DNA of 64,000 bases from Aridibacter sp. (GTDB lineage: Bacteria; Acidobacteriota; Blastocatellia; Pyrinomonadales; Pyrinomonadaceae), in contig JBFGKW010000002.1 in the NCBI GenBank assembly GCA_041576495.1, positions 5,541 through 69,540 on the forward strand. The letters are read 5' to 3'. The stretch's first letter is position 1. Each line of letters begins with the position of its first letter. The notes under the pieces are model-generated. The model ran no database searches, had not been told where the DNA came from, and worked only from the letters and a program-made list of their open reading frames with translations. Of the stretch, positions 1,002 through 46,680 are shown piece after piece. The translations under genes were made by a program, and so were the position numbers.

Positions 1002-1005
1002 ATTT

Positions 1006-1965: not shown

Positions 1966-1988
1966 TCCGCAGATTAAGAGAAAATAGC

Positions 1989-3590: not shown

Positions 3591-3623
3591 GGAATTTGCG
3601 AAAATATACGGGCATCACCACAG

Positions 3624-8045: not shown

Positions 8046-8118
8046 ATTCGGGACGTTATTCTTCATCTGTTGCGCGGTCGCCTTCCGGACCCCGGGTTGA
8101 ATCGAATTGTAATTTGAG

Positions 8119-9153: not shown

Positions 9154-9188
9154 GTATATTTGTATCAGCGAATTCGTCTTGGTTACAT

Positions 9189-10781: not shown

Positions 10782-11029
10782 AGTTTCTCTCCAAATTAAT
10801 GAATTTTACTTTCTTGAACTTGGTTTAACTTATATTGCACAGGCGATTCTTGGCAAACCAAACCGGGGCCGGACGGGGCAGAAATCAAAAATGGTGAATT
10901 GCCGGATATGTACGCCAAGATCGATATACACGGCGTTCTAATGCGAAAAATAGTTGATTGTTTGGTTAGTTAGACTTACTTTACAAATCGATTCATAATA
11001 ATCAAAAATTGGTTTCTGAGGTGTTTCTT

Positions 11030-20528: not shown

Positions 20529-20584
20529 TAAATCCCCGTTGTAGATCGTAATCGTTTGATGATGAGTCGTGTGAAGGTGTCTCG

Positions 20585-23425: not shown

Positions 23426-26098
23426 ATGGACGAGAAATATTTCGCACAAAAGATCGAAAAGAAATGGCAGACCCTGTGGGCCGAGCGCGGTACATTCGAA
23501 GCCCGCGAGGACGAAACGAAAAAAAAGTTTTACTGCCTTGAGATGTTGCCGTATCCTTCCGGAAAACTCCATATGGGGCATGTTCGCAACTACTCGATCG
23601 GCGATGCCCTTAGCTGGTATAAACGGCTTCAGGGATTCAACGTTCTTCATCCGATTGGGTGGGATTCATTCGGACAGCCCGCCGAACAGGCGGCGATTCA
23701 GCAGGGGGTCAACCCGCGAGATTGGACGGAAAAGAATATCTCAGAAATGCGAAAGCAGCTCCAAGCGCTCGGTCTTGGTTACGACTGGTCGCGTGAAATT
23801 GCGGCGCACCGGGTTGAATACTATAAGTTCGACCAATGGTTTTTCCTTAAAATGTTCGAAATGGGGTTGGCCTATCGTAAGGATTCCGAGGTCAACTGGT
23901 GCCCGAAATGCGAAACAACCCTTTCTAATGAACAGGCTTCCGGCGGAATATGCTGGCGTTGCGGAACACCTGTTGAGAAGCAATCCCGTCCCCAGTGGTT
24001 TCTAAAAATCACTGCGTTTGCCGAAGAACTACTTGAAGATTTGTCGAAAATAAGCGACGGCTGGCCGGAACGGGTGCTGACGATGCAGCGGAACTGGATC
24101 GGACGAAGCAAAGGTACATATATCGATTTTAAGGTTCAGAGCGAGGACTCGAAGATACGTGTCTTTACGACCCGGATCGATACTATCTACGGCGCAAATT
24201 CACTCGTTTTGGCACCAGATCATCCGTTTACCGTATCAAATTATGACCGGTTTGCTGAGCCTGTAAGAACCAAAGTGGATGAGCTCCGGCTCGACCAGGC
24301 AAAACCAAAAGATTACGGAGAAGAGGCAGTTAAGGACGGAATCGACACCGGGGTAAAGGCCGTCAACCCGTTCAGCGGCGACGAGATTCCAATCTGGATT
24401 GGAAACTACGTCATGATGAATTATGGAACCGGCGCGGTTATGAGCGTTCCCGGCCATGACGAACGGGATTTTGAATTTGCGAAAAAATTCGGATTGCCCA
24501 TTATTCCGGTGATTAAGGCCGTAGGCGAAGATTCATCGGGAAGAGTTGCCGGTGAAGATATGCCGCAGCGTGCGTTTGCAGAATTCGGCGTCCTAATTAA
24601 TTCGAGCCGTTGGAGCGATAAATCATCTGAGCAGGCGATCAAAGAAATGTCAGCATTTGCGGAAAAAGAAGGTTTTGGCGAATCCGCTACCACCTACCGG
24701 CTGAGGGATTGGGGGATTTCCAGGCAGAGGTTTTGGGGGGCTCCGATTCCGATCGTTTACTGCGACAAATGCGGGGTCGTTCCGGTCGATTACAAGGACC
24801 TTCCCGTGGAATTGCCGGAGTCGGCACCGTTTACGGGAATCGGCGAATCGCCGCTTGCGCGGGTCGATGAATTCGTAAATGCGTCATGCCCGACGTGTGG
24901 AGGATCTGCCAAACGCGAAACCGATACGATGGATACGTTTGTAGATTCGGCGTGGTATTATTTTCGCTACACTGACCCACACAACGTCGAGAAGCCGTTT
25001 GACAGGGAAATTGCAAGTTACTGGCTGCCTGTCGATCAGTATATCGGCGGTATTGATCACGCCGTTATGCATCTCCTCTATACCCGTTTCTGGACGAAAA
25101 TGATGCAGAAGATCGATTTGGTTGAATTCACGGAACCGGCCAAAAACCTGTTGACCCAGGGAATGGTAGTTGCTGAATCCTTTTACAGTAAACCGAACGA
25201 ACGCTACGTTGCACCTGAAGATGTTGAAATTGACCGTGATGAGTCGGGAAGAATCCGAGCCGCAAAACTCAAGAAAGACGGTTCGCCGGTCCGTGTAGCT
25301 GTTGAAAAGATGGGTAAGTCGAAATTGAACGGGGTCGACCCCAACGACATGATTTCGATTTACGGATCCGATTCTGTCCGGCTGTTTTCAATGTTTGCGG
25401 CCCCGGTCGAAAACGAACTTGTCTGGCAGGAAACGGGAATCGAAGGCGCCGTACGGTTCTTGCAGCGAATCTGGCGGTACGTATTCAAGTGGCATGGCTG
25501 TTTCAGCCGGGAAAGCACTCCGGCCGGCGCTGACCAGAGAATCCAATTTGAGAATCTGGTTGGAAGTCATGATTATTCGGATTCAGCTAAAAAACTGCGT
25601 CAGAAAACGCATCAAACGATCAATCGGATTACGGAGAACTTTGAAACCGGACAGTTTAACACCCCGGTAGCAGCGCTGATGGAACTGTCCAATTCGCTTC
25701 ACGAGTTCAACGCCGAACCGGAGAATGCCAACGAACTTGATCTTTTTGTCGTTCGTGAGGCGCTCGAAAGTCTTATCCTGATGCTGACACCATATGCGCC
25801 GCACGCTGCCGAGGAATTATGGGAAGCCGTAACCGGAAGCGACACCGGTATCCTTGAGTCGAATGCGAGATTTCCGGTCGCCGATGAAGATGCCGCCGCG
25901 GCCGACGAAATTGAAATTGTAGTCCAGGTTAACGGCAAGGTTCGTGCGCGTATGAGTGCGGCACCGGATGCATCTACCGAAGTTCTCCAGGAAATGGCGC
26001 TCTCCGAAGAAAAAATTGGCGAATATACTGAAGGCAAAGAGATTTCTAAAATTATCGTCGTTCCCGGACGTCTCGTAAATATTGTCGTCTCGGGCTAA
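23426..26098 (+). CDS. leuS: Leucine--tRNA ligase
   Basis: 890-aa ORF with class I motifs HMGH (LPYPSGKLHMGHVRNY) and KMGKSK (KMSKS variant). A CP1 editing insertion and zinc-binding CPKC...CWRC are present. Confidence 0.97.
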   Translation: MDEKYFAQKIEKKWQTLWAERGTFEAREDETKKKFYCLEMLPYPSGKLHMGHVRNYSIGDALSWYKRLQGFNVLHPIGWDSFGQPAEQAAIQQGVNPRDWTEKNISEMRKQLQALGLGYDWSREIAAHRVEYYKFDQWFFLKMFEMGLAYRKDSEVNWCPKCETTLSNEQASGGICWRCGTPVEKQSRPQWFLKITAFAEELLEDLSKISDGWPERVLTMQRNWIGRSKGTYIDFKVQSEDSKIRVFTTRIDTIYGANSLVLAPDHPFTVSNYDRFAEPVRTKVDELRLDQAKPKDYGEEAVKDGIDTGVKAVNPFSGDEIPIWIGNYVMMNYGTGAVMSVPGHDERDFEFAKKFGLPIIPVIKAVGEDSSGRVAGEDMPQRAFAEFGVLINSSRWSDKSSEQAIKEMSAFAEKEGFGESATTYRLRDWGISRQRFWGAPIPIVYCDKCGVVPVDYKDLPVELPESAPFTGIGESPLARVDEFVNASCPTCGGSAKRETDTMDTFVDSAWYYFRYTDPHNVEKPFDREIASYWLPVDQYIGGIDHAVMHLLYTRFWTKMMQKIDLVEFTEPAKNLLTQGMVVAESFYSKPNERYVAPEDVEIDRDESGRIRAAKLKKDGSPVRVAVEKMGKSKLNGVDPNDMISIYGSDSVRLFSMFAAPVENELVWQETGIEGAVRFLQRIWRYVFKWHGCFSRESTPAGADQRIQFENLVGSHDYSDSAKKLRQKTHQTINRITENFETGQFNTPVAALMELSNSLHEFNAEPENANELDLFVVREALESLILMLTPYAPHAAEELWEAVTGSDTGILESNARFPVADEDAAAADEIEIVVQVNGKVRARMSAAPDASTEVLQEMALSEEKIGEYTEGKEISKIIVVPGRLVNIVVSG

Positions 26099-26392
26099 CT
26101 TGATCGATAATATTTGCTTAGCGAATATGTGTTTAGGCGGACCCGGCAAATTTTAGTCGCCGGATAACAATTTCCGCCATACCGGCTTTGCCTCTGCGGT
26201 TTAACTGGGAAAAACGATAATTAGTATTTTTATTATAAGCAGACGTTCGTTTTAGACCTTGATTGCAGTTAGTAAAGTAACTAGAATTATTAACATTAGT
26301 TTAAACATCACGCGGCTCTGTTTACCTCAAGGAACAGACATCCGTGTTTTTTTCGAAAACGATTCCGACGGTAATTCGAATAGAAACAGAAC

Positions 26393-28693
26393 ATGAAAGA
26401 GTGCCAACAATGCAAAACCTGTTATGCCGATGATGTCGATACGTGTCCCAAAGATGGGATGCCAACTTTGCATACGATCGCCGGCGAACCTGTGCTCGAA
26501 GGTAAATATCATCTCGATATAAGGGTCGGGCAGGGCGGAATGGGTGTCGTCTATAAGGCACGACATGCATATCTGAAGACTGTTCACGCAATAAAAATCA
26601 TATTACCGGATTTAGTCGGAAATGATCCGCAGCTTGTCCAGCGGTTTCGCCAGGAGGCGTTGGCCGCGGCCGCTATCAGACATCCGAATGTCGTAAATGT
26701 TACGGATTATGGAGTTGCACAGGGAACGATGCCGTTTCTTGTGATGGAGTTTGTCGAGGGAGAGGATCTTCACGATTATCTTGCAAAGGAAAAACGACTT
26801 TCGCCGGCAAAGGCATTTGAGTTGGTTAGGGCGATATGTAAAGGAATTGGAGCCGCCCATAGTCAGGGTATTGTTCACCGCGACATGAAGCCGCTTAACA
26901 TAATGATTTTGAAAGGCAAGGCGGATATGTCGGAGGCGGTCAAAATTCTCGACTTTGGTTTGGCAAAAATAAAATCCGGTGAATTGCTCGGTTCATTTAT
27001 TCAGGCCCAGACAACCGGATTGATGGGCTCGCCTTATTATATGGCACCCGAGCAATGGTCCGATGATGAACTCGACGCCCGGTCAGACATTTATTCGATT
27101 GGCGTGATGCTGTTTCAAATGCTGGCGGGTGATGTTCCTTTTAAGGGGTCATCGATTCCGGCGATTATGAAAAAACATTTGACCGACGCCCCGCCGACGT
27201 TTGCCGATTTGGGCGTCGAGATTGATCCGAATATCGAGCGCGTAGTCCGCCGCACGCTCGAAAAAGATCGCAGCAAGAGAACTCCAAACGTCGAAACCCT
27301 GATTGCCGAACTCGATGCGGCTGAAGGAACGAGCGTTAAACGTGTTTCGGCGGAAGCCGGCGAACAGCTTCCGAGTTCGGCGTTAAAAGTGTTAACTAAC
27401 CCCCCGAAATCGGTTGTCTATGTAAATGACGTGGCGGTAGGCGAGAGCGAAACCAACGGCTGGCTGTTGCTTGAAGGTGTCCAAAGCGGGAATCATAAAC
27501 TGAGAGTCAGTCATGAAGGATATCAGGATTGGGAAGGACCCGTGTTTTGTGACGGGACTCCGACACAGGTCGTCGCGGAACTGAAGTCGAAGACCGGAGA
27601 ATCGGTAATTCCGAAGCCCACTGATGCGACGATGGTCTTGGATAAGCCGATCAGCGAGGACACACCTCAACATATTTCCGTTACCCATGGCTCGCAACCG
27701 GGAATGCAAGAAACGATTCAGCAAGGGGTCCAAACCGGAAGCCAACAATTCGGGACTCAAACCGGTTCCCAGGAAATCAAATCTCAAACCGGGGTCTGGA
27801 GTTGGATCCTGTCCCCCGTAGTATTGACGGTTACTGGAATTTCGGCGTTATTCCTACTTACTGCAATTGTAGGCTTGAGTGCATATATGTTTGGACTGTT
27901 CGGTGGAAGTACGGAGGGTGGGGTTACAAACCAGGCTTCCGATACGAACTCAAATGAAGGTAATTCAAACGCGGGTCCAAAGACCGAGTTGAATTACAAA
28001 TTCGAAATCGTTGAAATCCCGGGTGGTGATTTTACGATGGGCCGTAATGACGGACAGCCGCAGGAAATGCCAGAACACAAGGTCACTGTTAAAAGTTTCG
28101 GGATGGACAAATTTGAGGTTACCAACGGTGAATATTACGATTTTGTAAAAGAGACAAAGTATCCTTCGGTCCCGTTTTATTGGGAAAGCGGCAAGCCTTT
28201 TGACAGTGATGTGAATTTGCCGGTCCGTGCCGTGACTTTTAACGATGCCGAAGCCTTTGCCGAATGGCGCTCAAAGCGGGACGGAGTTGTTTACCGGCTT
28301 CCGACCGAAGAGGAATGGGAATATGCGGCGCGAAACGGCGGCGAAAACAATTTATATCCGTGGGGAGACGAATTTAAGAAAGATTGTGTCGTTTTAGATC
28401 AAAAGACGACTGCGCCAAAAGAGGTTGGCGGACGAGAATGCGGAGCAAATAAATGGGGTGTGGAGGATTTGATTGGAAACGTTTTTGAATGGACCAAATC
28501 GAAACCGGGTCTTTATCCAGGGAATCCGGGAACGATCAAGCAGATGAGTGAGCCGCATTTTATGATCCGGGGCGGCTCGGCGAATTTTAAGTCAACCGGA
28601 CAGCTGGCCATAACTTCCACTTTCCGCGTCGAGTTTATGGCCACAAAACAAGATCGAACACTGGGCTTTCGTCTGGTTCGATCCGACAATTAA
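26393..28693 (+). CDS. Hanks-type Ser/Thr protein kinase with N-terminal zinc-ribbon-like motif, PEGA-like domain, membrane segment and C-terminal FGE/SUMF1-type domain
   Basis: 766-aa ORF. N-terminal CxxC-x10-CPKDG (26402..26458). Kinase motifs are GQGGMGVVY, AIK (K68), HRDMKPLN (D164 at 26882..26884), DFG and APE. A PEGA-like segment spans aa ~330-398 and a hydrophobic stretch aa ~468-503. The FGE-sulfatase-type domain spans aa ~536-766 (GGDFTMG, EEEWEYAAR, GNVFEWT, RGGS, GFRLV). Confidence 0.9.
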   Translation: MKECQQCKTCYADDVDTCPKDGMPTLHTIAGEPVLEGKYHLDIRVGQGGMGVVYKARHAYLKTVHAIKIILPDLVGNDPQLVQRFRQEALAAAAIRHPNVVNVTDYGVAQGTMPFLVMEFVEGEDLHDYLAKEKRLSPAKAFELVRAICKGIGAAHSQGIVHRDMKPLNIMILKGKADMSEAVKILDFGLAKIKSGELLGSFIQAQTTGLMGSPYYMAPEQWSDDELDARSDIYSIGVMLFQMLAGDVPFKGSSIPAIMKKHLTDAPPTFADLGVEIDPNIERVVRRTLEKDRSKRTPNVETLIAELDAAEGTSVKRVSAEAGEQLPSSALKVLTNPPKSVVYVNDVAVGESETNGWLLLEGVQSGNHKLRVSHEGYQDWEGPVFCDGTPTQVVAELKSKTGESVIPKPTDATMVLDKPISEDTPQHISVTHGSQPGMQETIQQGVQTGSQQFGTQTGSQEIKSQTGVWSWILSPVVLTVTGISALFLLTAIVGLSAYMFGLFGGSTEGGVTNQASDTNSNEGNSNAGPKTELNYKFEIVEIPGGDFTMGRNDGQPQEMPEHKVTVKSFGMDKFEVTNGEYYDFVKETKYPSVPFYWESGKPFDSDVNLPVRAVTFNDAEAFAEWRSKRDGVVYRLPTEEEWEYAARNGGENNLYPWGDEFKKDCVVLDQKTTAPKEVGGRECGANKWGVEDLIGNVFEWTKSKPGLYPGNPGTIKQMSEPHFMIRGGSANFKSTGQLAITSTFRVEFMATKQDRTLGFRLVRSDN

Positions 28694-28709
28694 TGAAGTT
28701 GGTGGTTTT

Positions 28710-30098
28710 ATGCGGAGATATATGAAGTATTGCAGATTGAGTCTCTTCCTCGTCTGGGTGATGATTTTTTCGGGAATCGTTGGGGCTCAGGATCTGGGAA
28801 GCAGCAGCGATTTGTTTAGGCCGGCAAATTCTTCCGTTAAAAAATCGAACCCCAAAAAAACTGCGCCGAGAAAAAGAAGGGCCGCGGCGCGAAGGAAATC
28901 GACGAGGTCTAAGAGATCTACCGGCGGGCGGTCGACAGCTTCCACAAAAATCACCCCTGAATCCGAATCATCGGAAAAGAAAATGCCGGAGACCAGAATT
29001 CTGATCACTAAAGCGACCGTTAATCGCGACAAACCAACGATGATCGGTACGAATAAGGTGATCGTTTACGGCGGGTCTTCCGAAGGAAATTATCTTGAGA
29101 AATTTGAAAACGCGCTGGAAGTAGGCAATACCGCGCGAAATCAAAGGAATTATTCAAAGGCTGAAAGCGCTTACAAGCTCGCGCGTCAGATCGATCCCGA
29201 TGATTCCCGGGCAATATACGGTCTGGGAAATATTTACAGTGATCAGCAGCGTTGGGAAGAAGCCGAACGCGCTTATCGCAAGGCAATAATACTTGAACCG
29301 GATAGTGCAGCACCATATACCGCCATCAGCTTTGTTTTAACCCAACCGGTGGTTGGCACGAATTTGGGGGAACGGTATTCGGAAGCGGAAAAAATGTCCC
29401 GCATTGCGGTTCGGATTGCACCGGATTATGCGCTGGCGTTTGACCAACTTGGCGTCGCAATGGAACTAAAGGGATTGATTTCTAAAGAGACCCAGGACAT
29501 TTATCGTAAAGCAATTGAAATCGACCCGACATTTGCACTGGCTTATGCTCATTTGGGGAGAATATTGTATCGCAACGGTTTAACCGAGGAATCCTCTGCG
29601 GCGTACCGGAAATCTGTGGAATTAGCCGGTGACGCGCCGACTATGATTCTAGTCGCGGACGTCCTTCAGTCACAGCAAAAGTATTATGAATCCGAGCAGC
29701 TATTGATCAACGCCGTCCGGCAGGATCCTCGCAATCCAACCGGACTGTATCTATTGGGGAAGGCGCTGACTATCCGGGAGAGTTTTGCCGAAGCGGAAGA
29801 AGCGTTAAAGAAAAGCGTCGACGTAAGCCCTAACAGTTTTGTTTCTTATGCGCTCCTCGGTTCGCTGTATTTGAGACAGGGACAATTGAAGAAGGCCGAG
29901 CGCGCGCTTGACGCAGCACAGAAGGTGTCTTCCGATAACGAGAAAAAACGACTTGCCCAGGAGTTTGAAGAGGTCGGCGATGGGTTTATGAAGGAGAATA
30001 GCAGGCGCGATGCGATCCGGCTCTACCTGAAGGCTCTTTCACTCGATGAGAAAAACAAGCCGCTTGCAACGAAATTATCCCAAACGCGAACGGGCTAA
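28710..30098 (+). CDS. Tetratricopeptide-repeat protein, secreted or anchored, with a basic low-complexity N-region
   Basis: 462-aa ORF starting 16 bp after the kinase stop. It has a signal-like N-terminus and a K/R/S-rich tract (PRKRRAAARRKSTRSKRSTGGRS). This is followed by about 8 TPR units (for example AESAYKLARQIDPDDSRAIYGLGNIY and AERAYRKAIILEPDSAAPY). Confidence 0.85.
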   Translation: MRRYMKYCRLSLFLVWVMIFSGIVGAQDLGSSSDLFRPANSSVKKSNPKKTAPRKRRAAARRKSTRSKRSTGGRSTASTKITPESESSEKKMPETRILITKATVNRDKPTMIGTNKVIVYGGSSEGNYLEKFENALEVGNTARNQRNYSKAESAYKLARQIDPDDSRAIYGLGNIYSDQQRWEEAERAYRKAIILEPDSAAPYTAISFVLTQPVVGTNLGERYSEAEKMSRIAVRIAPDYALAFDQLGVAMELKGLISKETQDIYRKAIEIDPTFALAYAHLGRILYRNGLTEESSAAYRKSVELAGDAPTMILVADVLQSQQKYYESEQLLINAVRQDPRNPTGLYLLGKALTIRESFAEAEEALKKSVDVSPNSFVSYALLGSLYLRQGQLKKAERALDAAQKVSSDNEKKRLAQEFEEVGDGFMKENSRRDAIRLYLKALSLDEKNKPLATKLSQTRTG

Positions 30099-30231
30099 AA
30101 GTAATTCCGGTGTCTAGATTTGCGTTTCTTGAAATTCTGCCCCGATTAAGCGTTTCTCCCATTAGACGCGTAAAGGAATTTGATAAAAAACTGACGCTTC
30201 AGATATAAGTCGAATAAGAGGTTAAAGCTAA

Positions 30232-32601
30232 ATGACAACCTTAGCGGTAGTGGGAACAATGTATTATTGTCCGAAATGCAAGAGCAATTTCGAAGACAGA
30301 ACTCAGCGGTTTTGTCCTAACGACGGCGGACGACTCTTACCGGTGCAACCGGAAAAACGAAGCGCGGCTCCGACAAATAAAAACGTATTCACAAATCTCT
30401 TGGGGCGAACGGAAAAGAAAGAACGCGCCGACGAGAATCTTGCTCAGCACCCAAGGTTTGTAAGCGCAGCCAAGAAGCGGTTGAGTTTTGAGCCTCCCAA
30501 AAAGAGTGCGATATTTAAGGCGGGACAAATCACGGACGGCGTAAGATCGAAGCCGTTGGCCAAGCCAAATAAGCCGGAATCAACCAAGAAGCCAACTACC
30601 CCTAGGCGGCGGACCAAATTAGTAAGCTCCAGCGAGATTTCCGTCAGCCAGGCGAGACTGGGAAACCGGGAAAAGCACCCGGCCGGGCGGCCTGCGCTGA
30701 CCTGGCAAAATCCCCGCGTCCTCCTTGGTCAGGTTATCAAGGGCCGATATCGAATCGCGGACAAACTGCATCAGGATCAAACCAGTATTGCATATTTGGC
30801 AGGAGATGAAATCGTCAAGGGTAAGCGCGTCGTTATCAGAGTGCTGATGAGCGAGGCAAAGAAAGATACGTTTGAGGGCAAGGTATTCGCCGAAGAGCGG
30901 GTTTCGTTATCACACATAAATCATCCAAATATTGTCAGGGTAGTTGATTCAGGCCAGCTGCCGGAAGGAAACACATTTGTTGTAACCGATTATGTTGAAG
31001 GAAAATCGGTGAGCGACGTCTTAAAAAGTTCGGGCAGATTTGAGGCAAAAAGAGCCGCCCGAATTATTCGCCACGCATCACTGGCGCTTAGCGAGATCCA
31101 CCAGAACGGAATACTCCACCGCAACCCAAAACCCGAACATATCCTGCTCTTCATTTCGGACGCGGGCAATGAGCAGGTCAAAGTTACGGATTTTTCAGTT
31201 TCAGATGGAAAACCGCGGATCGATAATTTGGCGTATAAGTCGCCCGAGCAGCTTGCGGGGCAAACGCCGACATTTGCCAGTGACGCCTATTCACTCGCGG
31301 TTATCGGTTTTCAGATGTTAACCGGTAGTCTGCCTTTCAACGATCTTTCGGAACGCGAATTACTGAAGGCGCAAAAAGCCGGATTAAAGGTCAAAGCGAG
31401 TGAACTGGTTCCGGAAATTCCAACGTTGGTAGATCAAATTTTCGCAAAAGCGCTTTCGTTTAACCCGGCGGATCGTTACTCAAAGGCAAGAGATTTCGGT
31501 GAAGCGCTATTTAACGCTTTAACGACGGCGCTGGTATATGACAAATCGTTCGAATCAGACAACGTAAACGAATCTACATATCAACTTCCGGTCAAAACCC
31601 CTCGGGAAACAAAGGAAATGCCGGTAGAACACACGAGTGACACCGCCGCGGCTCAAGAAAGGCCGCCAAAGAGAACTCCGGTAACCGCGGATATTCATAT
31701 TTCAACAAAGGCGGCCAACGTGTTTGACGGGATGCGGAAATCGAACAAAAAAGATTTGGCCGGCCAAAAAGTGCCGAGATTTGATGAGTCAAAGAATAAT
31801 CGTCCGTCTAATATTGGTGTTGAGAACACCGCGCCCTCGACCCTGGTCTCGGTACTCGGATTAGCAGCAATTGCCGCGCTGGCGATTTTGATATTTGTTT
31901 ATTTTTTTAATCGCCAGGATGCCTTGACGACCGCCCCGGATTTGGAACAACCGGAACCCAGAAGTGCTGCGATCCAGGAGAACGTGGAAGATACTATTGA
32001 TGATATTGAAAGCCCGCCGCCCGCCCGAAAAATCATTCCGCCGGCAAACTCGATTTACTTCGAAAATTCTAAAGACAATTTGAATAATGATCTGAAGAAA
32101 AATTTTCGCGGATTTTCCGTTTATTACCCTAAGACCTGGGAAAGATCTCGATCCGAAAACAATTTCCTCGATATATCAAGAAAGGATAAAGACGGCATTC
32201 CGAAGGAAATGATGGTAGTCACCCATTACGACAGTAATGGTACTTTTAAGACCGACGAATCGAATTTTCCGATCCTGATAGAGAAATCGAACCGTGATCT
32301 TAGCGCATTACTGCCGAATTATGAGGTGGTTTCGAGGGGCAAGACCGAGATAAACAATGGCTGGAAGGGCTATCAGGTAAAATTTCAAGGGAAATCGAAA
32401 CTCGCCGACGGCCGAACGCTTGAAGTGTGGGGACGGCGAATCTGGGTGCCGGCGGCAAGACCGGGCGTCAAACATGGCTTGGTAATAACGATGTTGGCGA
32501 CTTCGCTGGCAGATAAGATTAAAAATCTCGATGATGTTGGAAATAAAGGAGATTTGGGCGGAATCCTGAAGACTTTCGAGCCGGACCAGAATTATGATTA
32601 G
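30232..32601 (+). CDS. Membrane-anchored pseudokinase (degenerate Hanks kinase fold) with N-terminal zinc-ribbon-like motif and extracytoplasmic C-terminal domain
   Basis: 789-aa ORF with AAGAGG 10 nt upstream. N-terminal CxxC-x11-CPNDG (30268..30327). The kinase-like region (aa ~165-430) has no Gly-rich loop. It has VIRVL with Arg203 (30838..30840) instead of the beta3 Lys, HRNPKPEH (Asn298 at 31123..31125) instead of HRDxKxxN, and DFS (31189..31197) instead of DFG, but it keeps SPE and the C-lobe. A TM segment spans aa ~537-559, followed by a ~230-aa C-terminal domain. Confidence 0.8.
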   Translation: MTTLAVVGTMYYCPKCKSNFEDRTQRFCPNDGGRLLPVQPEKRSAAPTNKNVFTNLLGRTEKKERADENLAQHPRFVSAAKKRLSFEPPKKSAIFKAGQITDGVRSKPLAKPNKPESTKKPTTPRRRTKLVSSSEISVSQARLGNREKHPAGRPALTWQNPRVLLGQVIKGRYRIADKLHQDQTSIAYLAGDEIVKGKRVVIRVLMSEAKKDTFEGKVFAEERVSLSHINHPNIVRVVDSGQLPEGNTFVVTDYVEGKSVSDVLKSSGRFEAKRAARIIRHASLALSEIHQNGILHRNPKPEHILLFISDAGNEQVKVTDFSVSDGKPRIDNLAYKSPEQLAGQTPTFASDAYSLAVIGFQMLTGSLPFNDLSERELLKAQKAGLKVKASELVPEIPTLVDQIFAKALSFNPADRYSKARDFGEALFNALTTALVYDKSFESDNVNESTYQLPVKTPRETKEMPVEHTSDTAAAQERPPKRTPVTADIHISTKAANVFDGMRKSNKKDLAGQKVPRFDESKNNRPSNIGVENTAPSTLVSVLGLAAIAALAILIFVYFFNRQDALTTAPDLEQPEPRSAAIQENVEDTIDDIESPPPARKIIPPANSIYFENSKDNLNNDLKKNFRGFSVYYPKTWERSRSENNFLDISRKDKDGIPKEMMVVTHYDSNGTFKTDESNFPILIEKSNRDLSALLPNYEVVSRGKTEINNGWKGYQVKFQGKSKLADGRTLEVWGRRIWVPAARPGVKHGLVITMLATSLADKIKNLDDVGNKGDLGGILKTFEPDQNYD

Positions 32602-32625
32602 CTAAAATGTTTTCAATTGGTTTTG

Positions 32626-32667
32626 AAAGCGTAAGCGAATAGTATCGTTTACGCTTTTTCTTTTTTG
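32626..32667 (+). terminator. Rho-independent terminator after the pseudokinase gene
   Basis: 13-bp stem AAAGCGTAAGCGA (32626..32638) / TCGTTTACGCTTT (32645..32657, one G-U pair) with loop ATAGTA. It runs into a T-rich tract TTTTTCTTTTTTG up to 32667. Confidence 0.8.
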
Positions 32668-32766
32668 TTTGATAAACTAGCCCCGTTGAGTTCATCAAAA
32701 GAATCGGCCGGATATTGATTTCTGCATCAAAAGATAGTGCACTCGCGTTTGAGTCTGTAAACCCAA

Positions 32767-35700
32767 ATGAAAATTGTATTAGTTGAAAAGGGGTCTGAAG
32801 GTAAAGAGCCTACCGAAAGGTCTTTCGAGCAGAACGCCGTTCGAATCGGCCGAGAGGCATCAACTTGCGATTTAGTCTTCGATAATCGGGATTATCGGAT
32901 GGTTTCACGGAATCATGCGGAATTAAAAGTGCAGAATGGCCAATGGATCCTAACGGATTCGGGTTCGAGCTTCGGTACTTTTGTTAATGGAACCCGCATC
33001 GTGCAGCCGACCGCCATTTCAATCGGAAACTCGATCCAGTTCGGCGAAAACGGCCCGATTGTCCACGTGATCTGGATTGAGAGCGCCTCTCAACCCGGTC
33101 CCGAATCACAACCGGCGGCGCCGGTTCCCGATTCCTTAAAAACCGACCAGCCTGCACCCGGATTATCAAGTCCCGTCCAGCAATCCGCTCCGGAACCACG
33201 CCTTCCCTTGGCGCGGCTTGAATTAATCGGCGCGACGGGTGGAAAGCCGACCCAAATTGCAAAAGAAAGCTTTTGGCTCGGACGGGATCTCGAAGCAGAT
33301 TTGACCATCGAAGCAACCGCAGTGATGGTTTCCCGTCGCCATGCTGAAATTCGTTGTGAAAAAGGGGCTTATTCCTTGCATGACAACAACAGCTATAACG
33401 GCACCTTGGTCAACGAGCAGCAGATTTCAGCAGGCACGCCATTGTACGACAACGATCGAATTCAGCTTGGACGCGGAGGGCCCGTACTCAAGTTTTACCA
33501 GCCCGGCAGAACGCGGCCGAAAGGTCACGACGTTCCAGGACAGCGATCGGTACCGGTAGATCAGGATCCGCATTTGATCGACGCTTCTGAACATATCGGA
33601 TCCGGAACGATGGTTTTCAACATCGCAGAAGCCTCGCCGGCTAGATCCCGCGACAATGCCGTCGAACAACTTCTGATGCAGATCGGATTCGGCGATAAGG
33701 ACTCGATCTCGATTGGTCGAAACGAATCAAACGACATCAGTCTTGACGGGCTTCAAATCTCCAACCGTCACGCCCGCTTACGGAGATCGAATGCTGGATT
33801 TTTGATTGAAGATCTCAATTCGACGAACGGCGTGTACGTTAACGGCCAACGAATCACCCGCCAGAATGTTTCCCCGACCGATTCGATCCAAATCGGCGCG
33901 TTTGTAATTAGACTTGACGAAACCGGAAATATAGGGGTTTTTGACACACGCTCAAAAACCCGGATTGACGCGATCGGAATCACAAAAGATGTCAAGAATC
34001 GTGCCGGAGGAGGCAAGATCCGACTCCTTGATGATATTTCTATTTCGATTAAACCGAATGAGTTTATCGGCATGCTGGGACCGTCAGGAGCGGGGAAATC
34101 GACATATATGGATGCATTAAACGGAATGCGTCCGGCTACGGATGGCAGTGTTTTCGTCAACAATCTCGATCTGTACCGGTATATCGATTCACTCAAACAG
34201 TCGATTGGCTATGTTCCTCAAGACGATATAATTCATCGCGAACTGACTGTATACAAAACCCTTTATTACGTTGCTAAACTAAGGCTCTCGCGCGATGTAT
34301 CGAGATCCGAGATTGACCAGATTGTTGAAGAGGTGCTTGATGTTACCGGACTTGATGAACGCCGGGATGTGCCGATCAATGAGCTTTCCGGTGGGCAGAG
34401 AAAACGTGTTTCAATCGCCGTAGAACTAATCACTAAGCCATCGATTATTTTTCTAGACGAGCCGACATCGGGGCTGGATCCGGCAACGGAAGAGAAGATC
34501 ATGAGGCTTTTCCGCCAGATTGCCGAATCGGGCAGAACCGTCATTCTGACCACCCATGCGATGGAAAATGTAAAGCTCTTTGACAAGATTGTGGTGTTGA
34601 TGAGGGGCAAGCTCGTTTTCTACGGTAAACCGGAAGAAGCGCTGGAGCAATTGGGTGCTTCGAGTTACAAAGAATTGTTTGACAAGCTTGAAGAACCTGT
34701 TGAGGCCAAAATTCGGGAGTTTGGCGAAACCAACCGGTTTAAGCTGACAGAGGAAGTAGCAGAGGGCTGGAAGCAGCGTTTCCTAAAAACGCCGCAATAC
34801 AAAAAGAATATATTTGAGCCGCTAAAGGAAGTTCAAAAGGCGGATTCGGCAAAGGGGAGAAAAACGCACCGGCTTGGTCTTTTCGGTGCCGTCAGGCAAT
34901 GGTTCACACTTTCGCGGCGATACGCACGCGTGTTGTCAAAAGACCGGATGAACCTTTTGATTCTTTTCGCTCAGGCCCCGATTATCGCGGTCCTCGTCTA
35001 TTTTGTAATGGGTGCGAATCAGCCGCGGGACTTTGCTTATTTTGCGCTCTCCCTGTGTTCGATATGGTTTGGGACTTCGGTTGCGGCTCGTGAGATCGTT
35101 CGAGAGAGGCCGATATATGAACGGGAGCGAATGGTCAATCTCGGTATTGTGCCTTATTTGGGCTCGAAGTTATTTGTTCTGGGCGCGATTGTCACAATCC
35201 AATGCATTTTGCTCTTCGTTCCGCTTAAGTTCCTTGACCTTGTCGGTTTAATGCCGATGCCGGGGGTGTTTTTAGGAATACCGCAGTTTATTACGATGCT
35301 GACGACCGCGGCGGTCGGGGTTTCGCTCGGCCTTTTCATTTCTGCGCTGGTCAAAACGTCTGAGATGGCGACCAGTTTAATACCGCTAATACTGATTCCG
35401 CAAATTATATTTTCGGGACTAATTGGGGTCCCCGCCGGTGTTAATAAAGTCGTGGGGCTTACGATGCCGGCGACCTGGTCGTTTGATTCCATTAAACGCT
35501 TTTCCGGACTCGATACGCTTGAAAGGGAAGGCGCGTTAACAAACGGCGAGACAAAGGGCCTCGGGCTTTACAAACAGATCGAAATGGAAAATGAAGCGAT
35601 TATCGAGGATGCCAAGAATAATATAAAGGAATACGAAAAGGATCTCGAGACCAAGCTACAGGATGCCGAAAAGCGTGCAAATACCGGAGAAAGGGTTCAA

Positions 35701-35886
35701 TTTACCGGAATGCCGGATCGGCCCGAGGTCGGCACTGCCGCGAAGATTCCCGCCGATCTGAGTAAATATATAACCTTTCTTCATCCATGGATGCATGAAT
35801 TATTAAACCAACTTGTATTGATGCTGATGTTTTTGTTTTTATTCATTAGCACTCTTATTATATTGCGTTTGCAGGACATAGGATAA
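32767..35886 (+). CDS. Triple-FHA-domain ABC exporter (fused ATPase plus ABC-2/ABCG-like permease)
   Basis: 1039-aa ORF. Three FHA domains with G-R...S-x-x-H...N-G signatures: aa 25-93 (32839..33045), aa 169-236 (33271..33474) and aa 314-379 (33706..33903). Walker A GPSGAGKST (34078..34104), signature LSGGQRKRV, and Walker B IIFLDEPTSGLD. Six C-terminal TM segments, with a ~130-aa coiled-coil-rich loop before the last one. Confidence 0.9.
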   Translation: MKIVLVEKGSEGKEPTERSFEQNAVRIGREASTCDLVFDNRDYRMVSRNHAELKVQNGQWILTDSGSSFGTFVNGTRIVQPTAISIGNSIQFGENGPIVHVIWIESASQPGPESQPAAPVPDSLKTDQPAPGLSSPVQQSAPEPRLPLARLELIGATGGKPTQIAKESFWLGRDLEADLTIEATAVMVSRRHAEIRCEKGAYSLHDNNSYNGTLVNEQQISAGTPLYDNDRIQLGRGGPVLKFYQPGRTRPKGHDVPGQRSVPVDQDPHLIDASEHIGSGTMVFNIAEASPARSRDNAVEQLLMQIGFGDKDSISIGRNESNDISLDGLQISNRHARLRRSNAGFLIEDLNSTNGVYVNGQRITRQNVSPTDSIQIGAFVIRLDETGNIGVFDTRSKTRIDAIGITKDVKNRAGGGKIRLLDDISISIKPNEFIGMLGPSGAGKSTYMDALNGMRPATDGSVFVNNLDLYRYIDSLKQSIGYVPQDDIIHRELTVYKTLYYVAKLRLSRDVSRSEIDQIVEEVLDVTGLDERRDVPINELSGGQRKRVSIAVELITKPSIIFLDEPTSGLDPATEEKIMRLFRQIAESGRTVILTTHAMENVKLFDKIVVLMRGKLVFYGKPEEALEQLGASSYKELFDKLEEPVEAKIREFGETNRFKLTEEVAEGWKQRFLKTPQYKKNIFEPLKEVQKADSAKGRKTHRLGLFGAVRQWFTLSRRYARVLSKDRMNLLILFAQAPIIAVLVYFVMGANQPRDFAYFALSLCSIWFGTSVAAREIVRERPIYERERMVNLGIVPYLGSKLFVLGAIVTIQCILLFVPLKFLDLVGLMPMPGVFLGIPQFITMLTTAAVGVSLGLFISALVKTSEMATSLIPLILIPQIIFSGLIGVPAGVNKVVGLTMPATWSFDSIKRFSGLDTLEREGALTNGETKGLGLYKQIEMENEAIIEDAKNNIKEYEKDLETKLQDAEKRANTGERVQFTGMPDRPEVGTAAKIPADLSKYITFLHPWMHELLNQLVLMLMFLFLFISTLIILRLQDIG

Positions 35887-35894
35887 AAAATGTT

Positions 35895-36515
35895 ATGAAA
35901 TTCTCGATTAAACTTATCTTGGCGCTGGGAATACTCTTTGCTGCTCTTTCCGGGATCAGTTGCAGTTATTTGACGTCGACTACCGATTCGAATACCGCGA
36001 AATCAGGAGACACGCCCGGCGGCAAGAGCCCCGGACCCGAAGAACCCGATGGGGAGAGCGGCGATAGCGAGTATCCTGCTCCGCCTGAGAAAATCGCGGC
36101 GGCCGAATTCAAGCTGATCGACGGCAGCACATTCTCGTTAGAAGAAAGCAAGGGTAAGGTTATATTGATTAACCTCTGGGCCACCTGGTGCGGTCCCTGC
36201 CGTAAAGAGATGCCAGAATTGGTGGCGATGCAGAATGAGTACCGAGACAAGGGGTTTGAAATTATCGGGCTCGATACCGACCCGGAAACCACTGAAGAAA
36301 TTAAGGAATTTGCCGAAAAACTTAAGTTGAATTACAAACTGGGCTGGGCAGATCGGGAATTGGTCGAAGAGTTTTTTACCCTCGGTCAAATGAATGGCAT
36401 CCCCCAGAGCTTTTTAATCAATCGAAATGGAAAACTGACCGGGATATTTCAGGGCGGCAGCGACCGCGTGATCGAGAAAATGAAGGAAACGGTTGCAAAA
36501 GTCATAAACGAATAA
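35895..36515 (+). CDS. TlpA-family thiol:disulfide oxidoreductase lipoprotein (thioredoxin fold)
   Basis: 206-aa ORF starting 8 bp after the ABC gene stop. It has a signal plus lipobox LSGISC, a low-complexity linker, and then LINLWATWCGPCRKEMP (WCGPC active site). Confidence 0.85.
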   Translation: MKFSIKLILALGILFAALSGISCSYLTSTTDSNTAKSGDTPGGKSPGPEEPDGESGDSEYPAPPEKIAAAEFKLIDGSTFSLEESKGKVILINLWATWCGPCRKEMPELVAMQNEYRDKGFEIIGLDTDPETTEEIKEFAEKLKLNYKLGWADRELVEEFFTLGQMNGIPQSFLINRNGKLTGIFQGGSDRVIEKMKETVAKVINE

Positions 36516-36548
36516 AAAAAAACGTCAAAGCTCGAGCCGGCTTTGCGT
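36514..36548. terminator. Candidate terminator hairpin between convergent genes
   Basis: Stem ACG(T)CAAAGC (36522..36531) / GCTTTGCGT (36540..36548) with an 8-nt loop, preceded by A9 (36514..36522). On the minus strand this gives hairpin plus U-run for the NFACT gene. It is less canonical for the plus strand. Confidence 0.5.
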
Positions 36549-36557
36549 TTGACCTGA

Positions 36558-37994
36558 TTATTTTTTTGGGACTCCCGGTTTCACGATCACGGTTTTGAAA
36601 CTTGCCAGGCTGACCAAACCGGGTGCCGAACCCTTCGGCTTATTGACAAATTTCTTCTGAGTGTAATGAACGGCAGCTTTTGACTCATTTTTGGCTTTAC
36701 TGTAAAAAGCCGCCAATCCGGCTGCCTCCAGTAGTGTAGAGTGCGGGATTTCTTTTCGGTTCGGGTTTCTGATAATTACATGTGAGCCCGGATAATCGGC
36801 GGCATGGAGCCATGTGTCAAGAGACTTGGCGATCCGAAATGTTAGAAAATCATTGTCCTTTGAACGCTTGCCGACCAGGATTTCAAAACCGTCGGTTGAT
36901 AAATATCTTTTGGTTCCGGGAAATGGATCATCGGCTTTAGACTTATTCCTTGGCGGGATCCCTCGGTTATCGATCCCTTGGAATGACTCGAGCGCATCTT
37001 CGTTTCGATCGGCAATTGCCCGATTTAAAGCAGATTTACGAAATTCAAGTTCTGCCAGTTCAGCACCAAGCAATTCCAGCCTTGCGGATATTTCCGACTT
37101 TGCGTTTCGCGCCTTACCGTAACGCTTAAAATAATCTTCGGCTGCTTCAGTAACGGAAAGATGCTCCTCGGCTTCGATCTCAATCCGCGGCGTTTCGGGA
37201 TCAAAATAATCAATCGCGAAAATCTTGTTTTCGGACCGCTCTGCAGTGGAGACATTGGCCAGTAAAACCTCTCCAAAATGTTTCCATTGACCGGGATCGC
37301 CATGATTTTCCAAATCCTGGATGAGCCTCTTCCTGAGTCGGTTCTTTTTCTTGATTTCCTTATTGAGGAGGGCTTTTGCCGAGTTTGCCTTTGATCGAAA
37401 TCCTTCGTCGGCCTCCTTGTGCAAATAGAACCCGTCAAGTGCCGCTGACAGCGTTTGATGGGTGCCTTGCGGGAAAACTTGCAGATTGGATCCGGTGCGC
37501 CCTTCAAGTCGCGCGGGAGGAGCATACGAACCGCCCGTAATCTGGCCATGACCCTCAGTTTTTCGCAGCGATTCAATGATCTGATCGTTTTCGCCAAGTA
37601 AAAAGAGATTTGATGAACGGCCGGTTAACTGAATGAGAAGTGCAGAGCGCCGGTCTTCCCCAAGCTCATTCTGACCGTCAAATACCATTTTTAAGACGCG
37701 CTCATCGGCTATTTTTTCCACGTTTCGAACGACCGCGTTAGCAAAGTGCTTTTGAATTCGTAAATAAAAACTTTGTAAGCGGCCAGATTGCTCCTCAAGC
37801 GTCTTGAGCCGCCGCTCGATAAGGTAGGTCCTCGGTGAATTAGGTTCGACGGCGATAAATAAGTAGGTTCCGTCTGAGAGCCGGAAATCGATGGCGATCC
37901 GGTATTTTGCGAGCGGGAAAATCTTGCCGAACTTTTGGCCGGTAAGACGGTTCCGAAGTTCGGCTTGGATTCGTTGTAAGGTCGGCTCATTCAT
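36558..37994 (-). CDS. NFACT-family protein (RqcH / FbpA-like ribosome quality-control factor)
   Basis: The track ORF extends to 38048. The ATG at 37994 gives MNEPTLQRIQAELRNRLTGQKFGKI, typical of NFACT-N. A central coiled coil follows. The C-terminal NFACT-R/DUF814-like segment reads GFEILVGKRSKDNDFLTFRIAKSLDTWLHAADYPGSHVII. Confidence 0.75.
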   Translation of the reverse strand: MNEPTLQRIQAELRNRLTGQKFGKIFPLAKYRIAIDFRLSDGTYLFIAVEPNSPRTYLIERRLKTLEEQSGRLQSFYLRIQKHFANAVVRNVEKIADERVLKMVFDGQNELGEDRRSALLIQLTGRSSNLFLLGENDQIIESLRKTEGHGQITGGSYAPPARLEGRTGSNLQVFPQGTHQTLSAALDGFYLHKEADEGFRSKANSAKALLNKEIKKKNRLRKRLIQDLENHGDPGQWKHFGEVLLANVSTAERSENKIFAIDYFDPETPRIEIEAEEHLSVTEAAEDYFKRYGKARNAKSEISARLELLGAELAELEFRKSALNRAIADRNEDALESFQGIDNRGIPPRNKSKADDPFPGTKRYLSTDGFEILVGKRSKDNDFLTFRIAKSLDTWLHAADYPGSHVIIRNPNRKEIPHSTLLEAAGLAAFYSKAKNESKAAVHYTQKKFVNKPKGSAPGLVSLASFKTVIVKPGVPKK

Positions 37995-38056
37995 TTCGTA
38001 ATCTATTCCAAGAATACTAATAATGCATCGATGAGCTGACGCTGGCAATGAACAAA

Positions 38057-46489: not shown

Positions 46490-46680
46490 TTGAAATATTG
46501 TGATAAATGCCAAACTGGCCAGGCCAGTCCGTTTGACTGTTGACGGCCATAATCGCAGTCCAAAGTTCTTCGAACGAGTAATAGAAATCGGCCCGGTCAA
46601 AGTCGATTATTTCATGAAATCAGAAATTGTAGAAGTGGTCAGATACTGTAGGCTGATGACACCTGATTCAATCGTCGTTA

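Follow-up and report, generated by a model that had tools for sequence, protein, structure and literature searches.

We analysed a window of 64,000 nt from Aridibacter sp. (Acidobacteriota, Blastocatellia, Pyrinomonadaceae; contig JBFGKW010000002.1, positions 5,541-69,540, forward strand), concentrating on five consecutive genes that encode a receptor Ser/Thr kinase, a secreted tetratricopeptide repeat (TPR) protein, a membrane pseudokinase, an ABC exporter with three N-terminal FHA domains, and a TlpA-like lipoprotein. A first-pass annotation had described this layout and had proposed that the genes form a kinase/pseudokinase/FHA-exporter circuit. The layout, with its coordinates and its intergenic gaps of 16, 133, 165, and 8 nt (in order), was reproduced exactly in our map of open reading frames (ORFs), and the domain calls for all five genes agree with Pfam, while an equivalog-level NCBIfam name was obtained for none of the five proteins. 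Our analysis points to a phospho-regulated exporter of the Rv1747 type, with the neighbouring kinase as its plausible, yet unproven, regulator. The five genes and the terminator that lies among them are the following.

26393-28693, plus strand: active receptor Hanks-type Ser/Thr kinase, 766 aa (Pfam and motifs)
28710-30098, plus strand: secreted TPR protein, 462 aa (multiple Pfam TPR families)
30232-32601, plus strand: membrane pseudokinase, 789 aa (Pfam, Pkinase only, E = 4e-27; AlphaFold2)
32625-32668, plus strand: intrinsic terminator after the pseudokinase gene, 14-bp stem (AAAGCGTAAGCGA...TCGTTTACGCTTT) followed by a T-run (hairpin analysis)
32767-35886, plus strand: ABCG-like half-transporter, 1039 aa, with an N-terminal module of three FHA domains (Pfam, homology)
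35895-36515, plus strand: TlpA/ResA-like thioredoxin-fold lipoprotein, 206 aa, with lipobox Cys23 and W-C98-G-P-C101 (~98-102) (Pfam, motifs)

For comparison, we used 160 related loci (numbered with the prefix L), each viewed over +/-10 kb. A scan of one genome per species yielded 80 Pyrinomonadales loci centred on exporter orthologues of 56-73% identity, and the arrangement upstream of the exporter was counted in the 53 of these whose upstream sequence extends over at least 7 kb. A metagenome scan with the kinase alignment yielded 67 true kinase orthologues, 22 of them with at least 5.4 kb of downstream sequence. The window sequence itself is present in marine and soil DNA metagenomes.

The FHA exporter and its TlpA-like partner

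Pfam divides the exporter into three FHA stretches (E = 5e-55) followed by ABC_tran and ABC2_membrane, and alignments to ABCG25, ABCG1, and ABCG2 cover residues 420-892 as one segment. Its parts are listed below.

32836-33051, plus strand: FHA-1, ~aa 24-95, with G28-R29, S47-R48-x-H50, and an NG loop (alignments)
33268-33486, plus strand: FHA-2, ~aa 168-240, with G172-R173, S189-R190-x-H192, and N211-G212 (alignments)
33595-33624, plus strand: linker motif IGSG-T281-MVFNI, candidate phospho-acceptor and FHA ligand (78-sequence alignment)
33706-33897, plus strand: FHA-3, aa 314-377, with G317-R318, S332-x-x-H335, and S352-T353-N354-G355 (Pfam, alignment)
34027-34470, plus strand: nucleotide-binding domain, with Walker A GPSGAGKS, signature LSGGQ, and Walker B IIFLDEPT (Pfam, motifs)
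34894-35871, plus strand: ABC-2-type membrane domain, with a long loop/coiled coil (~aa 905-1005) before the last transmembrane helix (Pfam ABC2_membrane)

In alignments of 25 and of 78 orthologues, the Gly-Arg, Ser-x-x-His, and Asn-Gly residues of all three FHA domains are kept without exception. Among known structures, FHA-2 matches FHA-1 of Rv1747 (6ccd; E = 1.6e-7), FHA-3 matches GarA, OdhI, and FHA-2 of Rv1747 (6cah), and the FHA region also matches Rv0020c; overall, the FHA domains resemble those of Rv1747 weakly (E = 1e-7 to 1e-4). T281, in an otherwise variable linker between FHA-2 and FHA-3, is shared by 78/78 orthologues, and the orthologue consensus around it, [GS][SP]K-T-[MI]-[VAI]-[FALVI]-x-[LVAMI], places hydrophobic residues at +1, +2, +3, and +5. 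The linker between FHA-1 and FHA-2 is Pro-rich, 48-107 residues long, and contains a median of three Thr, none of which is positionally conserved. Motifs of a Thr followed by hydrophobic residues (ATVF, KTIM, and MTAVM) are visible in homologues below 45% identity, a distance at which alignment of the disordered linker is unreliable.

An exhaustive search of 1.84 billion representatives retrieved 9511 proteins of this exporter family at E <= 1e-30. Among the best 150 homologues, many are 750-1150 aa long and match the region from FHA-3 through the membrane domain in two to four stretches, and the family members that we sampled carry one to four Pfam FHA matches each. Judged from these sequences, the triple-FHA exporter is not unique to the source genome and belongs to a widespread, mostly unannotated family. 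To our knowledge, Rv1747 of Mycobacterium tuberculosis is the only characterised FHA-gated ABC exporter, and the present comparison places it in a very large family with two to four FHA domains. The invariance of the candidate phospho-site T281 in the Pyrinomonadales members makes a direct test simple.

The product of the last gene matches Pfam AhpC-TSA/Redoxin and carries a lipobox Cys23 that is kept in 73 of the 80 TlpA-like ORFs of the related loci, which agrees with the earlier call of a TlpA-like thioredoxin lipoprotein encoded 8 bp downstream of the exporter. With TlpA, ResA, and CcmG, it shares the thioredoxin fold, the W-C-G-P-C motif, and the lipoprotein anchor. Unlike these proteins, it falls short of the NCBIfam equivalog cut-offs (TlpA, 89.7 vs 230 bits; ResA, 87.7 vs 170), and its partner gene encodes an ABCG-like exporter instead of belonging to the cytochrome-maturation genes. 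The TlpA-like gene lies directly 3' of the exporter in 75/75 orthologous loci, with a gap of 8 nt in the window. This constant pairing with a putative reductase appears to be the strongest clue to the exporter substrate. A cytochrome-maturation system of the CcmAB/CcmG/CcmH type, considered from a TPR_CcmH match together with TlpA, was rejected: the membrane domain is ABCG-like (PF01061) and not CcmB, and the TPR match is generic. In the kinase-centred loci, TlpA stays last in the cluster, whichever of the other genes has disappeared.

Upstream of the exporter, the hairpin at 32625-32658 and its T-run have a folding energy of -18.2 kcal/mol, consistent with the strong terminator that the first-pass annotation had placed after the pseudokinase gene. 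At the equivalent place before the exporter, 50/60 loci have a hairpin with a T-run, which is kept whether the preceding gene encodes a pseudokinase or a kinase. Its outer stem, AAAGCG...CGCTTTTT (AAAGCG...CGCTTT), is conserved at 56-73% protein identity, and the inner stem shows compensatory changes. Because this conserved terminator separates the kinase genes from the exporter genes, at least two transcription units are predicted, as had been proposed. A TAnAAT-like box lies ~20-40 nt downstream of the hairpin, and both this box and traces of the 3' arm persist where the genes preceding the exporter are unrelated. This pattern points to a separate promoter for exporter and TlpA, located right behind the terminator, and the conserved hairpin may double as a part of that promoter or as a protein-binding site. 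A scan of 26000-36800 against Rfam for a known leader or riboswitch gave no match at E <= 1.

The kinase, the TPR protein, and the pseudokinase

From its N terminus, the kinase is composed of a Cys motif, the kinase domain, PEGA, a Q/T-rich linker, one transmembrane helix, and an extracytoplasmic FGE-like domain, with Pfam matches to Pkinase (39-297, E = 2e-46), PEGA, and FGE-sulfatase (538-763). The pseudokinase comprises a Cys motif, a disordered basic linker, a degenerate kinase fold, a second disordered linker, a transmembrane helix, and a PsbP/Mog1-like domain. The TPR protein encoded between them has a signal peptide, a basic low-complexity segment, and TPR repeats at ~aa 135-450. The features of the two membrane proteins are the following.

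26402-26458, plus strand: zinc-ribbon-like motif C4-x2-C7-x2-C10-x7-C18-P-x-D-G of the kinase (orthologue alignment)
26507-27283, plus strand: catalytic kinase domain, aa 39-297, with GQGGMG, AIK, HRDMKPLN, DFG, T207/T208, and APE (Pfam, motifs)
27608-27643, plus strand: cytoplasmic juxtamembrane motif IPKP-x3-T413-M-V-L of the kinase, candidate autophosphorylation or FHA-docking site (orthologue recurrence)
27797-27907, plus strand: single hydrophobic transmembrane stretch of the kinase, aa 469-505 (sequence; the hydrophobic stretch is also in the orthologue consensus)
28004-28681, plus strand: extracytoplasmic FGE-sulfatase-like domain of the kinase, aa 538-763 (Pfam, E = 1e-45)
30268-30327, plus strand: zinc-ribbon-like motif C13-P-K-C16-x11-C28-P-N-D-G of the pseudokinase (motif search)
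30385-30408, plus strand: V-F-T54-N-L-L-G-R motif in the disordered N-terminal linker of the pseudokinase, candidate phospho-site (alignment)
30679-31554, plus strand: pseudokinase domain, aa 150-441, with no glycine-rich loop (G-loop), R203 in place of the beta3 Lys, HRN298, H303, and DFS (motifs, AlphaFold2)
31831-31911, plus strand: transmembrane helix of the pseudokinase, aa 534-560 (AlphaFold2)
32029-32598, plus strand: extracytoplasmic PsbP/Mog1/LpqN-like alpha/beta domain of the pseudokinase, aa 600-789, without a Pfam match (AlphaFold2 and Foldseek)

The kinase is predicted to be active, as the first-pass annotation had it, since the full Hanks motif set is intact and the activation loop carries a Thr pair: the G-loop GQGGMG, AIK68, E88, HRD164, N169, D187FG, and APE are each at least 95% conserved among 46 orthologues. 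In most of the same orthologues, the juxtamembrane region contains IPKP and a Thr with hydrophobic residues at +1 and +3 (consensus IPKP-x-T-[MVI]-x-[FLY]), a motif similar to that around T281 of the exporter. In a clade whose loci contain no exporter, the middle region of the kinase is a coiled coil, and the juxtamembrane Thr motif is not reliably alignable there.

No Cys occurs in kinase residues 725-766 (RGGS...GFRLV) or in the corresponding orthologue consensus, and the NCBIfam matches of the FGE-like domain to EgtB, GldK, and PvdO all lie under their cut-offs. Because the active-site Cys pair is absent, the domain is predicted to be non-catalytic, a binding domain rather than an enzyme. 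The succession of kinase, transmembrane helix, and FGE-like domain is shared with Hanks kinases that carry a C-terminal FGE-sulfatase domain, such as "Proteo1" (bioRxiv 10.1101/2025.01.12.632604). Unlike those, the present kinase is acidobacterial and carries both PEGA (a coiled coil in sister clades) and the invariant C-x2-C-x2-C-x7-C-P-x-D-G motif, in which C4, C7, C10, C18, P19, D21, and G22 do not vary in the orthologue alignment.

A related Cys motif opens the pseudokinase, where it gives sub-threshold matches to Zn_ribbon_3 and Zn_ribbon_NUD and is modelled by AlphaFold2 as two beta-hairpins (residues 10-37). A six-frame search of the 64-kb window with C..C.{8,14}C..[DE]G returned exactly two occurrences, at the N termini of the kinase and the pseudokinase, and among 4401 ORFs of the 80 related loci, the motif is confined to orthologues of these two proteins. 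The earlier observation that both share an unusual N-terminal Cys motif therefore holds, and far beyond chance. Canonical N-terminal zinc ribbons are also found in two small proteins of the window, at 42826-43431 on the plus strand (Zn_Ribbon_1/DZR) and at 49184-49900 on the minus strand (DZR and Zn_ribbon_TFIIB); such ribbons are common in the source genome, and the C-P-x-D-G variant is limited to the kinase and pseudokinase. Further along the disordered linker of the pseudokinase, V52, F53, and L57 around T54 are near-invariant in the orthologue alignment.

As the first-pass annotation proposed, the third gene appears to encode a pseudokinase, with a kinase fold that lacks the G-loop, the beta3 Lys, the HRD Asp, and an intact DFG motif. 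The degenerate motifs read VVIRV (K to R), HRN (D to N), KPEH (N to H), and DFS. Because the same defects are kept across 35 orthologues (K to R in 30/35, loss of the HRD Asp in 33/35, and replacement of the second G-loop Gly by Asp in 32/35), the pseudokinase state is, on sequence grounds, old and not a sequencing artefact. An AlphaFold2 model built from 41 sequences contains a confident kinase fold at 150-441, whose best Foldseek matches are PknB and PknA at 30-31% identity. PknI of M. tuberculosis is a relative with weak activity.

The families MviN/ActPs, CP1, DLHK, and GLW resemble the present protein in their PknB-like fold and in the loss of the VAIK Lys, the HRD Asp, and partly the DFG Asp, and in ActPs2 the VAIK Lys is replaced by Arg, as in R203 here (bioRxiv 10.1101/2025.01.12.632604). 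Unlike those families, the present one combines a zinc-ribbon-like motif, a disordered region, the pseudokinase, a transmembrane helix, and a PsbP/Mog1-like domain, and its kinase fold has been repeatedly lost in orthologues.

Two differing extracytoplasmic domains had been noted in the kinase and the pseudokinase. The former is the FGE-like domain, and we identify the latter as likely PsbP/Mog1-like. A Foldseek search with the full-length pseudokinase model was swamped by kinases, and the C-terminal domain was therefore modelled alone (predicted local distance difference test score 94, predicted template-modelling [TM] score 0.90). In the PDB, it matched 3lyd, PsbP, LpqN, Apa, MTC28, Mog1p, and SciW with probability 1.0, the superpositions having TM scores of 0.4-0.58 and a root-mean-square deviation above 5 A. 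The outer domain thus likely falls in the PsbP/Mog1-like fold class, as judged from the model. Its probable fold and its predicted extracytoplasmic location recall envelope proteins such as LpqN, Apa, MTC28, DUF1795/SciW, and Jonesia 3lyd; unlike these, it is fused to a transmembrane helix and a cytoplasmic signalling region, has no Pfam match, and is distant from them (10-18% identity, TM score ~0.5).

We refer to the pseudokinase and its orthologues, with or without the kinase fold, as PSK proteins; in public records, they are labelled "serine/threonine protein kinase". A PSK-like gene directly follows the TPR gene in 35/35 exporter-centred and 20/20 kinase-centred loci. The kinase-like fold is absent in 7 of ~42 Pyrinomonadales PSK orthologues, in which Pfam detects no domain; it has been deleted (L010, 493 aa) or exchanged for acidic low-complexity sequence (L019), while the N-terminal Cys motif, the transmembrane helix, and the PsbP-like domain all still align well. 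The PSK-like proteins of a sister clade, 407-434 aa long, likewise have no kinase fold and keep the other three parts. Because the fold is lost in several orthologues while the other parts persist, the conserved core of the PSK protein is, by this comparison, the zinc-ribbon-like motif and the periplasmic domain, with the dead kinase fold as an accessory. In 10/53 loci, TPR and PSK are wholly missing and the kinase directly precedes the exporter; in L004, the deletion of TPR and most of PSK is recent, and C-terminal PSK fragments remain. PSK is also fast-evolving, with 53% identity to its nearest homologue vs 89% for the kinase domain. As such, these results define a membrane protein family with a zinc-ribbon-like motif, an optional pseudokinase, and a PsbP-like domain, whose members databases label as active kinases and in which the pseudokinase fold has been caught during its loss.

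The pseudokinase had further been called a paralogue of the neighbouring kinase. Paralogy through the catalytic domains was rejected, as the neighbouring kinase (92 bits, 27% identity) scores no better than StkP (111 bits), PknA (99 bits), or PknB (94 bits), and only the Cys motif is specifically shared.

Gene order and the proposed regulation of the exporter

The explanation that we favour, and to which we give about an even chance, is that the region consists of two modules, that a Hanks kinase phosphorylates T281, and that the FHA domains bind the resulting phosphothreonine (pThr), with the neighbouring kinase as the leading candidate. The first module (26393-32601) would be one transcription unit ending at the conserved terminator, and its kinase, TPR protein, and pseudokinase would together form one envelope-sensing unit, a part of the proposal that we consider likely. 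In this unit, the non-catalytic FGE-like domain would serve as the periplasmic sensor of the kinase, the TPR protein and the PsbP-like domain would be at work on the periplasmic side, and the kinase fold of PSK would be an expendable accessory. In the second module (32767-36515), the exporter would act as an ABCG-like homodimer whose three FHA domains are competent to bind pThr, and its gene would be transcribed together with that of a TlpA-like periplasmic thiol-disulfide oxidoreductase lipoprotein. A Hanks kinase would phosphorylate T281, and probably also Thr of the Pro-rich FHA1-FHA2 linker; the FHA domains would then bind pThr sites within or between transporters, or on the autophosphorylated kinase. 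This binding would change the assembly or clustering of the transporter and raise export, and three FHA domains would confer a higher valency. By analogy with Rv1747, regulation of the exporter through pThr and FHA domains seems quite probable. That the neighbouring kinase is a physiological kinase of the exporter has, in our estimate, somewhat less than an even chance. It is the most economical candidate, as it lies on the same side of the membrane, has an activation-loop Thr pair and juxtamembrane Thr motifs to which FHA domains might dock, and exemplifies an adjacency that recurs in three unrelated lineages; the comparative data, however, do not require it.

In M. tuberculosis, PknF phosphorylates Rv1747 at T150 and T208, the sites are bound by both FHA domains, and the regulation of the transporter is positive (PMC3138270). 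Phosphorylation by PknF enhances the multivalent assembly of the FHA-linker region, clustering, and phase separation, which a phosphatase reverses (bioRxiv 10.1101/2020.08.05.239012), and pknF and Rv1747 form a two-gene operon (PMC3908365). The exporter described here is like Rv1747 in having canonical N-terminal FHA domains followed by an ABCG-like half-transporter with nucleotide-binding and transmembrane domains, and the gene of a membrane Hanks kinase lies upstream on the same strand in both cases. At the sequence level, T281 also resembles T208, being located just upstream of the last FHA domain with hydrophobic residues at +3 and +5. Unlike Rv1747, which has two FHA domains, the present exporter has three and is predicted to be co-transcribed with a TlpA gene, and unlike PknF, the present kinase carries a Cys motif at its N terminus and bears a large FGE-like domain on the periplasmic side. 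The Rv1747 analogy of the first-pass annotation thus stands for the architecture and for the FHA matches, and it fails in that the kinase is not in the same operon.

Conservation of the five-gene order in related genomes, which the first-pass annotation had named as a check of the circuit, was observed: a kinase lies upstream of the exporter, on the same strand, in 45/53 loci and the full order is present in 29/53. Specifically, kinase-TPR-pseudokinase precedes the exporter in 29 loci, kinase-TPR-PSK without a detectable kinase fold in 6, and the kinase alone in 10, while the 8 loci with no kinase have an M19 peptidase, RHS fragments, argininosuccinate lyase, or STAND/CHAT genes there instead. 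A metagenome-assembled genome of the cultured relative Aridibacter famidurans (L044) has the kinase beside exporter-TlpA. Several observations nevertheless weigh against a functional link between the two modules. The junction between the exporter and the kinase or PSK gene is retained in 56/69 loci (81%), beside control junctions between unrelated genes that are retained in 35/46 (76%; LeuRS/kinase) and 49/63 (78%; TlpA/NFACT), and beside exporter/TlpA in 75/75 and NFACT/RDD in 43/44. The kinase-exporter junction is kept no more often than junctions between unrelated neighbours; this adjacency is at background level, and therefore synteny is no evidence for a functional link. In a relative with 45% exporter identity, the order HEAT-LeuRS-kinase-exporter-TlpA-NFACT-RDD-DUF2203-NYN-SpoU-DZR-NDH2 is the same as in the window over ~25 kb; gene order is very stable in this lineage, and inherited order explains the arrangement. 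In 13/69 exporter-centred loci, the upstream genes are unrelated, and T281 and the FHA residues are still kept. Among the 22 informative kinase-centred loci, the exporter follows the kinase module in 9 (41%). In one clade, the locus reads LeuRS-kinase-TPR-PSK-like-TlpA and lacks the exporter (L116, L121, L125, L134, L135, L137, L143, L144, L156, and L157), in L139 and L147 TlpA directly follows the kinase, and in two further kinase-centred loci kinase-TPR-pseudokinase is followed by unrelated genes. The conserved terminator separates the modules, with two genes between kinase and exporter, unlike in the pknF-Rv1747 operon. A Pfam scan of the 64-kb window detected no PP2C phosphatase and no further kinase gene. 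Finally, among ten contexts of more distant multi-FHA ABC proteins, half of them on contigs below 9 kb, an adjacent kinase is found in two, one of which is the orthologous arrangement. Judged from these comparisons, kinase-TPR-PSK and exporter-TlpA each hold together as a module, and either module can occur without the other beside it. Of the proposed circuit, the architecture and the likeness to Rv1747 remain, and the functional link does not gain from an adjacency at background level. More generally, the five-gene order was conserved in a synteny test, yet it carried no functional information once control junctions were counted.

The other distant context with an adjacent kinase is L086, where the gene of a small, unrelated Hanks kinase is followed after 48 bp by a triple-FHA exporter of 50% identity. 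The exporter is the last gene of a same-strand cluster (1-11177) of VWA/Prok-RING, an FHA protein, a BNR protein, PP2C, a kinase-FHA fusion, VWA, and the small kinase, which resembles the VWA-kinase-FHA-PP2C operons reported from Deinococcus (bioRxiv 10.64898/2026.01.23.701218). One further distant context has a PP2C phosphatase 3 kb away, and the rest, several on short contigs, are without a kinase. The recurrent association of the exporter family with Ser/Thr signalling is suggestive, and with ten contexts it is not statistically separable from chance.

An alternative is that the modules are functionally independent and that their adjacency is inherited order, with the exporter under one or more other Ser/Thr kinases, many of which genomes like the source are expected to encode, and the kinase module signalling to other substrates. 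We regard this as a real possibility, somewhat more doubtful than not. Besides the background-level retention, the shared order from HEAT-LeuRS through NDH2, and the terminator, it would account for the persistence of T281 and the FHA residues where no kinase adjoins, for the retention of all catalytic motifs of the kinase where no exporter adjoins, and for the fact that LeuRS adjoins the kinase more faithfully (~70% of informative kinase-centred loci) than the exporter does; in addition, PknF is not the only kinase that induces clustering of Rv1747 (bioRxiv 10.1101/2020.08.05.239012). However, an FHA-ABC exporter has come to lie beside a Hanks kinase at least three times (PknF, the FGE kinase described here, and the small kinase of L086), motifs of the T-[MVI]-x-[FLY] kind are found in kinase and exporter alike, and the adjacency survives rearrangements that remove LeuRS, being found also in loci that have lost it.

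Two narrower alternatives assign the central role to other genes. The pseudokinase might be a paralogue of the active kinase that regulates it allosterically through kinase/pseudokinase dimerisation, as the earlier suggestion of an allosteric partner implied. This would fit the confidently predicted fold, the shared Cys motif, the common operon, and the conservation of the degenerate motifs (R203 in 30/35, and HRN), which suggests a maintained non-catalytic use in that subclade. We consider it unlikely, however, given a domain at least as near to StkP, PknA, or PknB as to the kinase, its fast evolution, the absence of TPR and PSK from 10/53 loci, including the recent deletion, and a fold missing both from 7 of ~42 orthologues and from the whole kinase-TPR-PSK-like-TlpA clade. 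Alternatively, the exporter and TlpA could be the key pair, with a thiol, lipid, or glycoconjugate exported, TlpA acting on the cargo in the periplasm, and the FHA domains mainly as adaptors, so that control by a kinase would be secondary. The only junction retained in all loci, with its short gap, the position of TlpA at the cluster end even when the exporter is absent, and the thiol-related genes around the cluster (EgtB/EgtD in the window and BshC near a distant exporter homologue) speak for this pair, yet more distant multi-FHA exporters have no TlpA neighbour, L124 and L132 carry other genes between exporter and TlpA, the outer loop of the exporter contains no cysteines, and the strict conservation of T281 and of the pThr-binding residues argues for phospho-regulation, which makes this alternative rather improbable.

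Within the favoured two-module explanation, a more elaborate and, in our estimate, improbable version is that a tripartite envelope sensor (the Cys-motif kinase, the TPR protein, and the Cys-motif/PsbP-like pseudokinase) phosphorylates the T-[MVI]-x-hydrophobic motifs at T413, T54, and T281, that the three FHA domains read these marks multivalently and cluster the exporter at the sensor, and that the zinc-ribbon-like motif is a shared docking element. If true, the tripartite sensor would extend the Rv1747 condensate switch to a higher valency and add a scaffold to it.

Insertions and neighbouring genes

Insertions into the conserved order were seen in three loci: in L053 (5625-10000), 4.4 kb separate pseudokinase and exporter; in L008 (13829-17805), ~4 kb separate TlpA and NFACT; and in L158 (12245-19289), kinase and TPR are set apart by ~7 kb that contain a second kinase. 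Downstream of the cluster, the minus strand of the window (36558-39373) carries a gene pair for an N-terminally short NFACT/RqcH-like protein of 496 aa and an RDD membrane protein; in one clade (L058, L061, L075, L077, and L079), the NFACT gene is much shorter, ~301 aa.

Elsewhere in the window, three ORFs are without a Pfam match at E <= 1e-5, at 40971-42020 (plus strand, 349 aa), 44339-46600 (minus strand, 753 aa), and 51536-52279 (minus strand, 247 aa). The last of these overlaps a shikimate-pathway gene (49953-51752), and the start of one of the two is doubtful. On the minus strand at 19551-21769, EgtD (Methyltransf_33) and EgtB (DinB_2 and FGE-sulfatase) lie side by side as an ergothioneine biosynthesis pair, and EgtB accounts for weak minus-strand matches of the kinase-FGE query upstream of HEAT/LeuRS in several related loci. 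Near the start of the window (3624-8045, plus strand), a 1473-aa protein combines NAD_binding_4/Sterile (fatty-acyl reductase), AMP-binding, a PP-binding carrier, and an acyltransferase, with a gene of the NAD-dependent epimerase/dehydratase family after it; the architecture of the 1473-aa protein may be akin to that of the ElbD type of myxobacterial ether-lipid synthesis enzymes.

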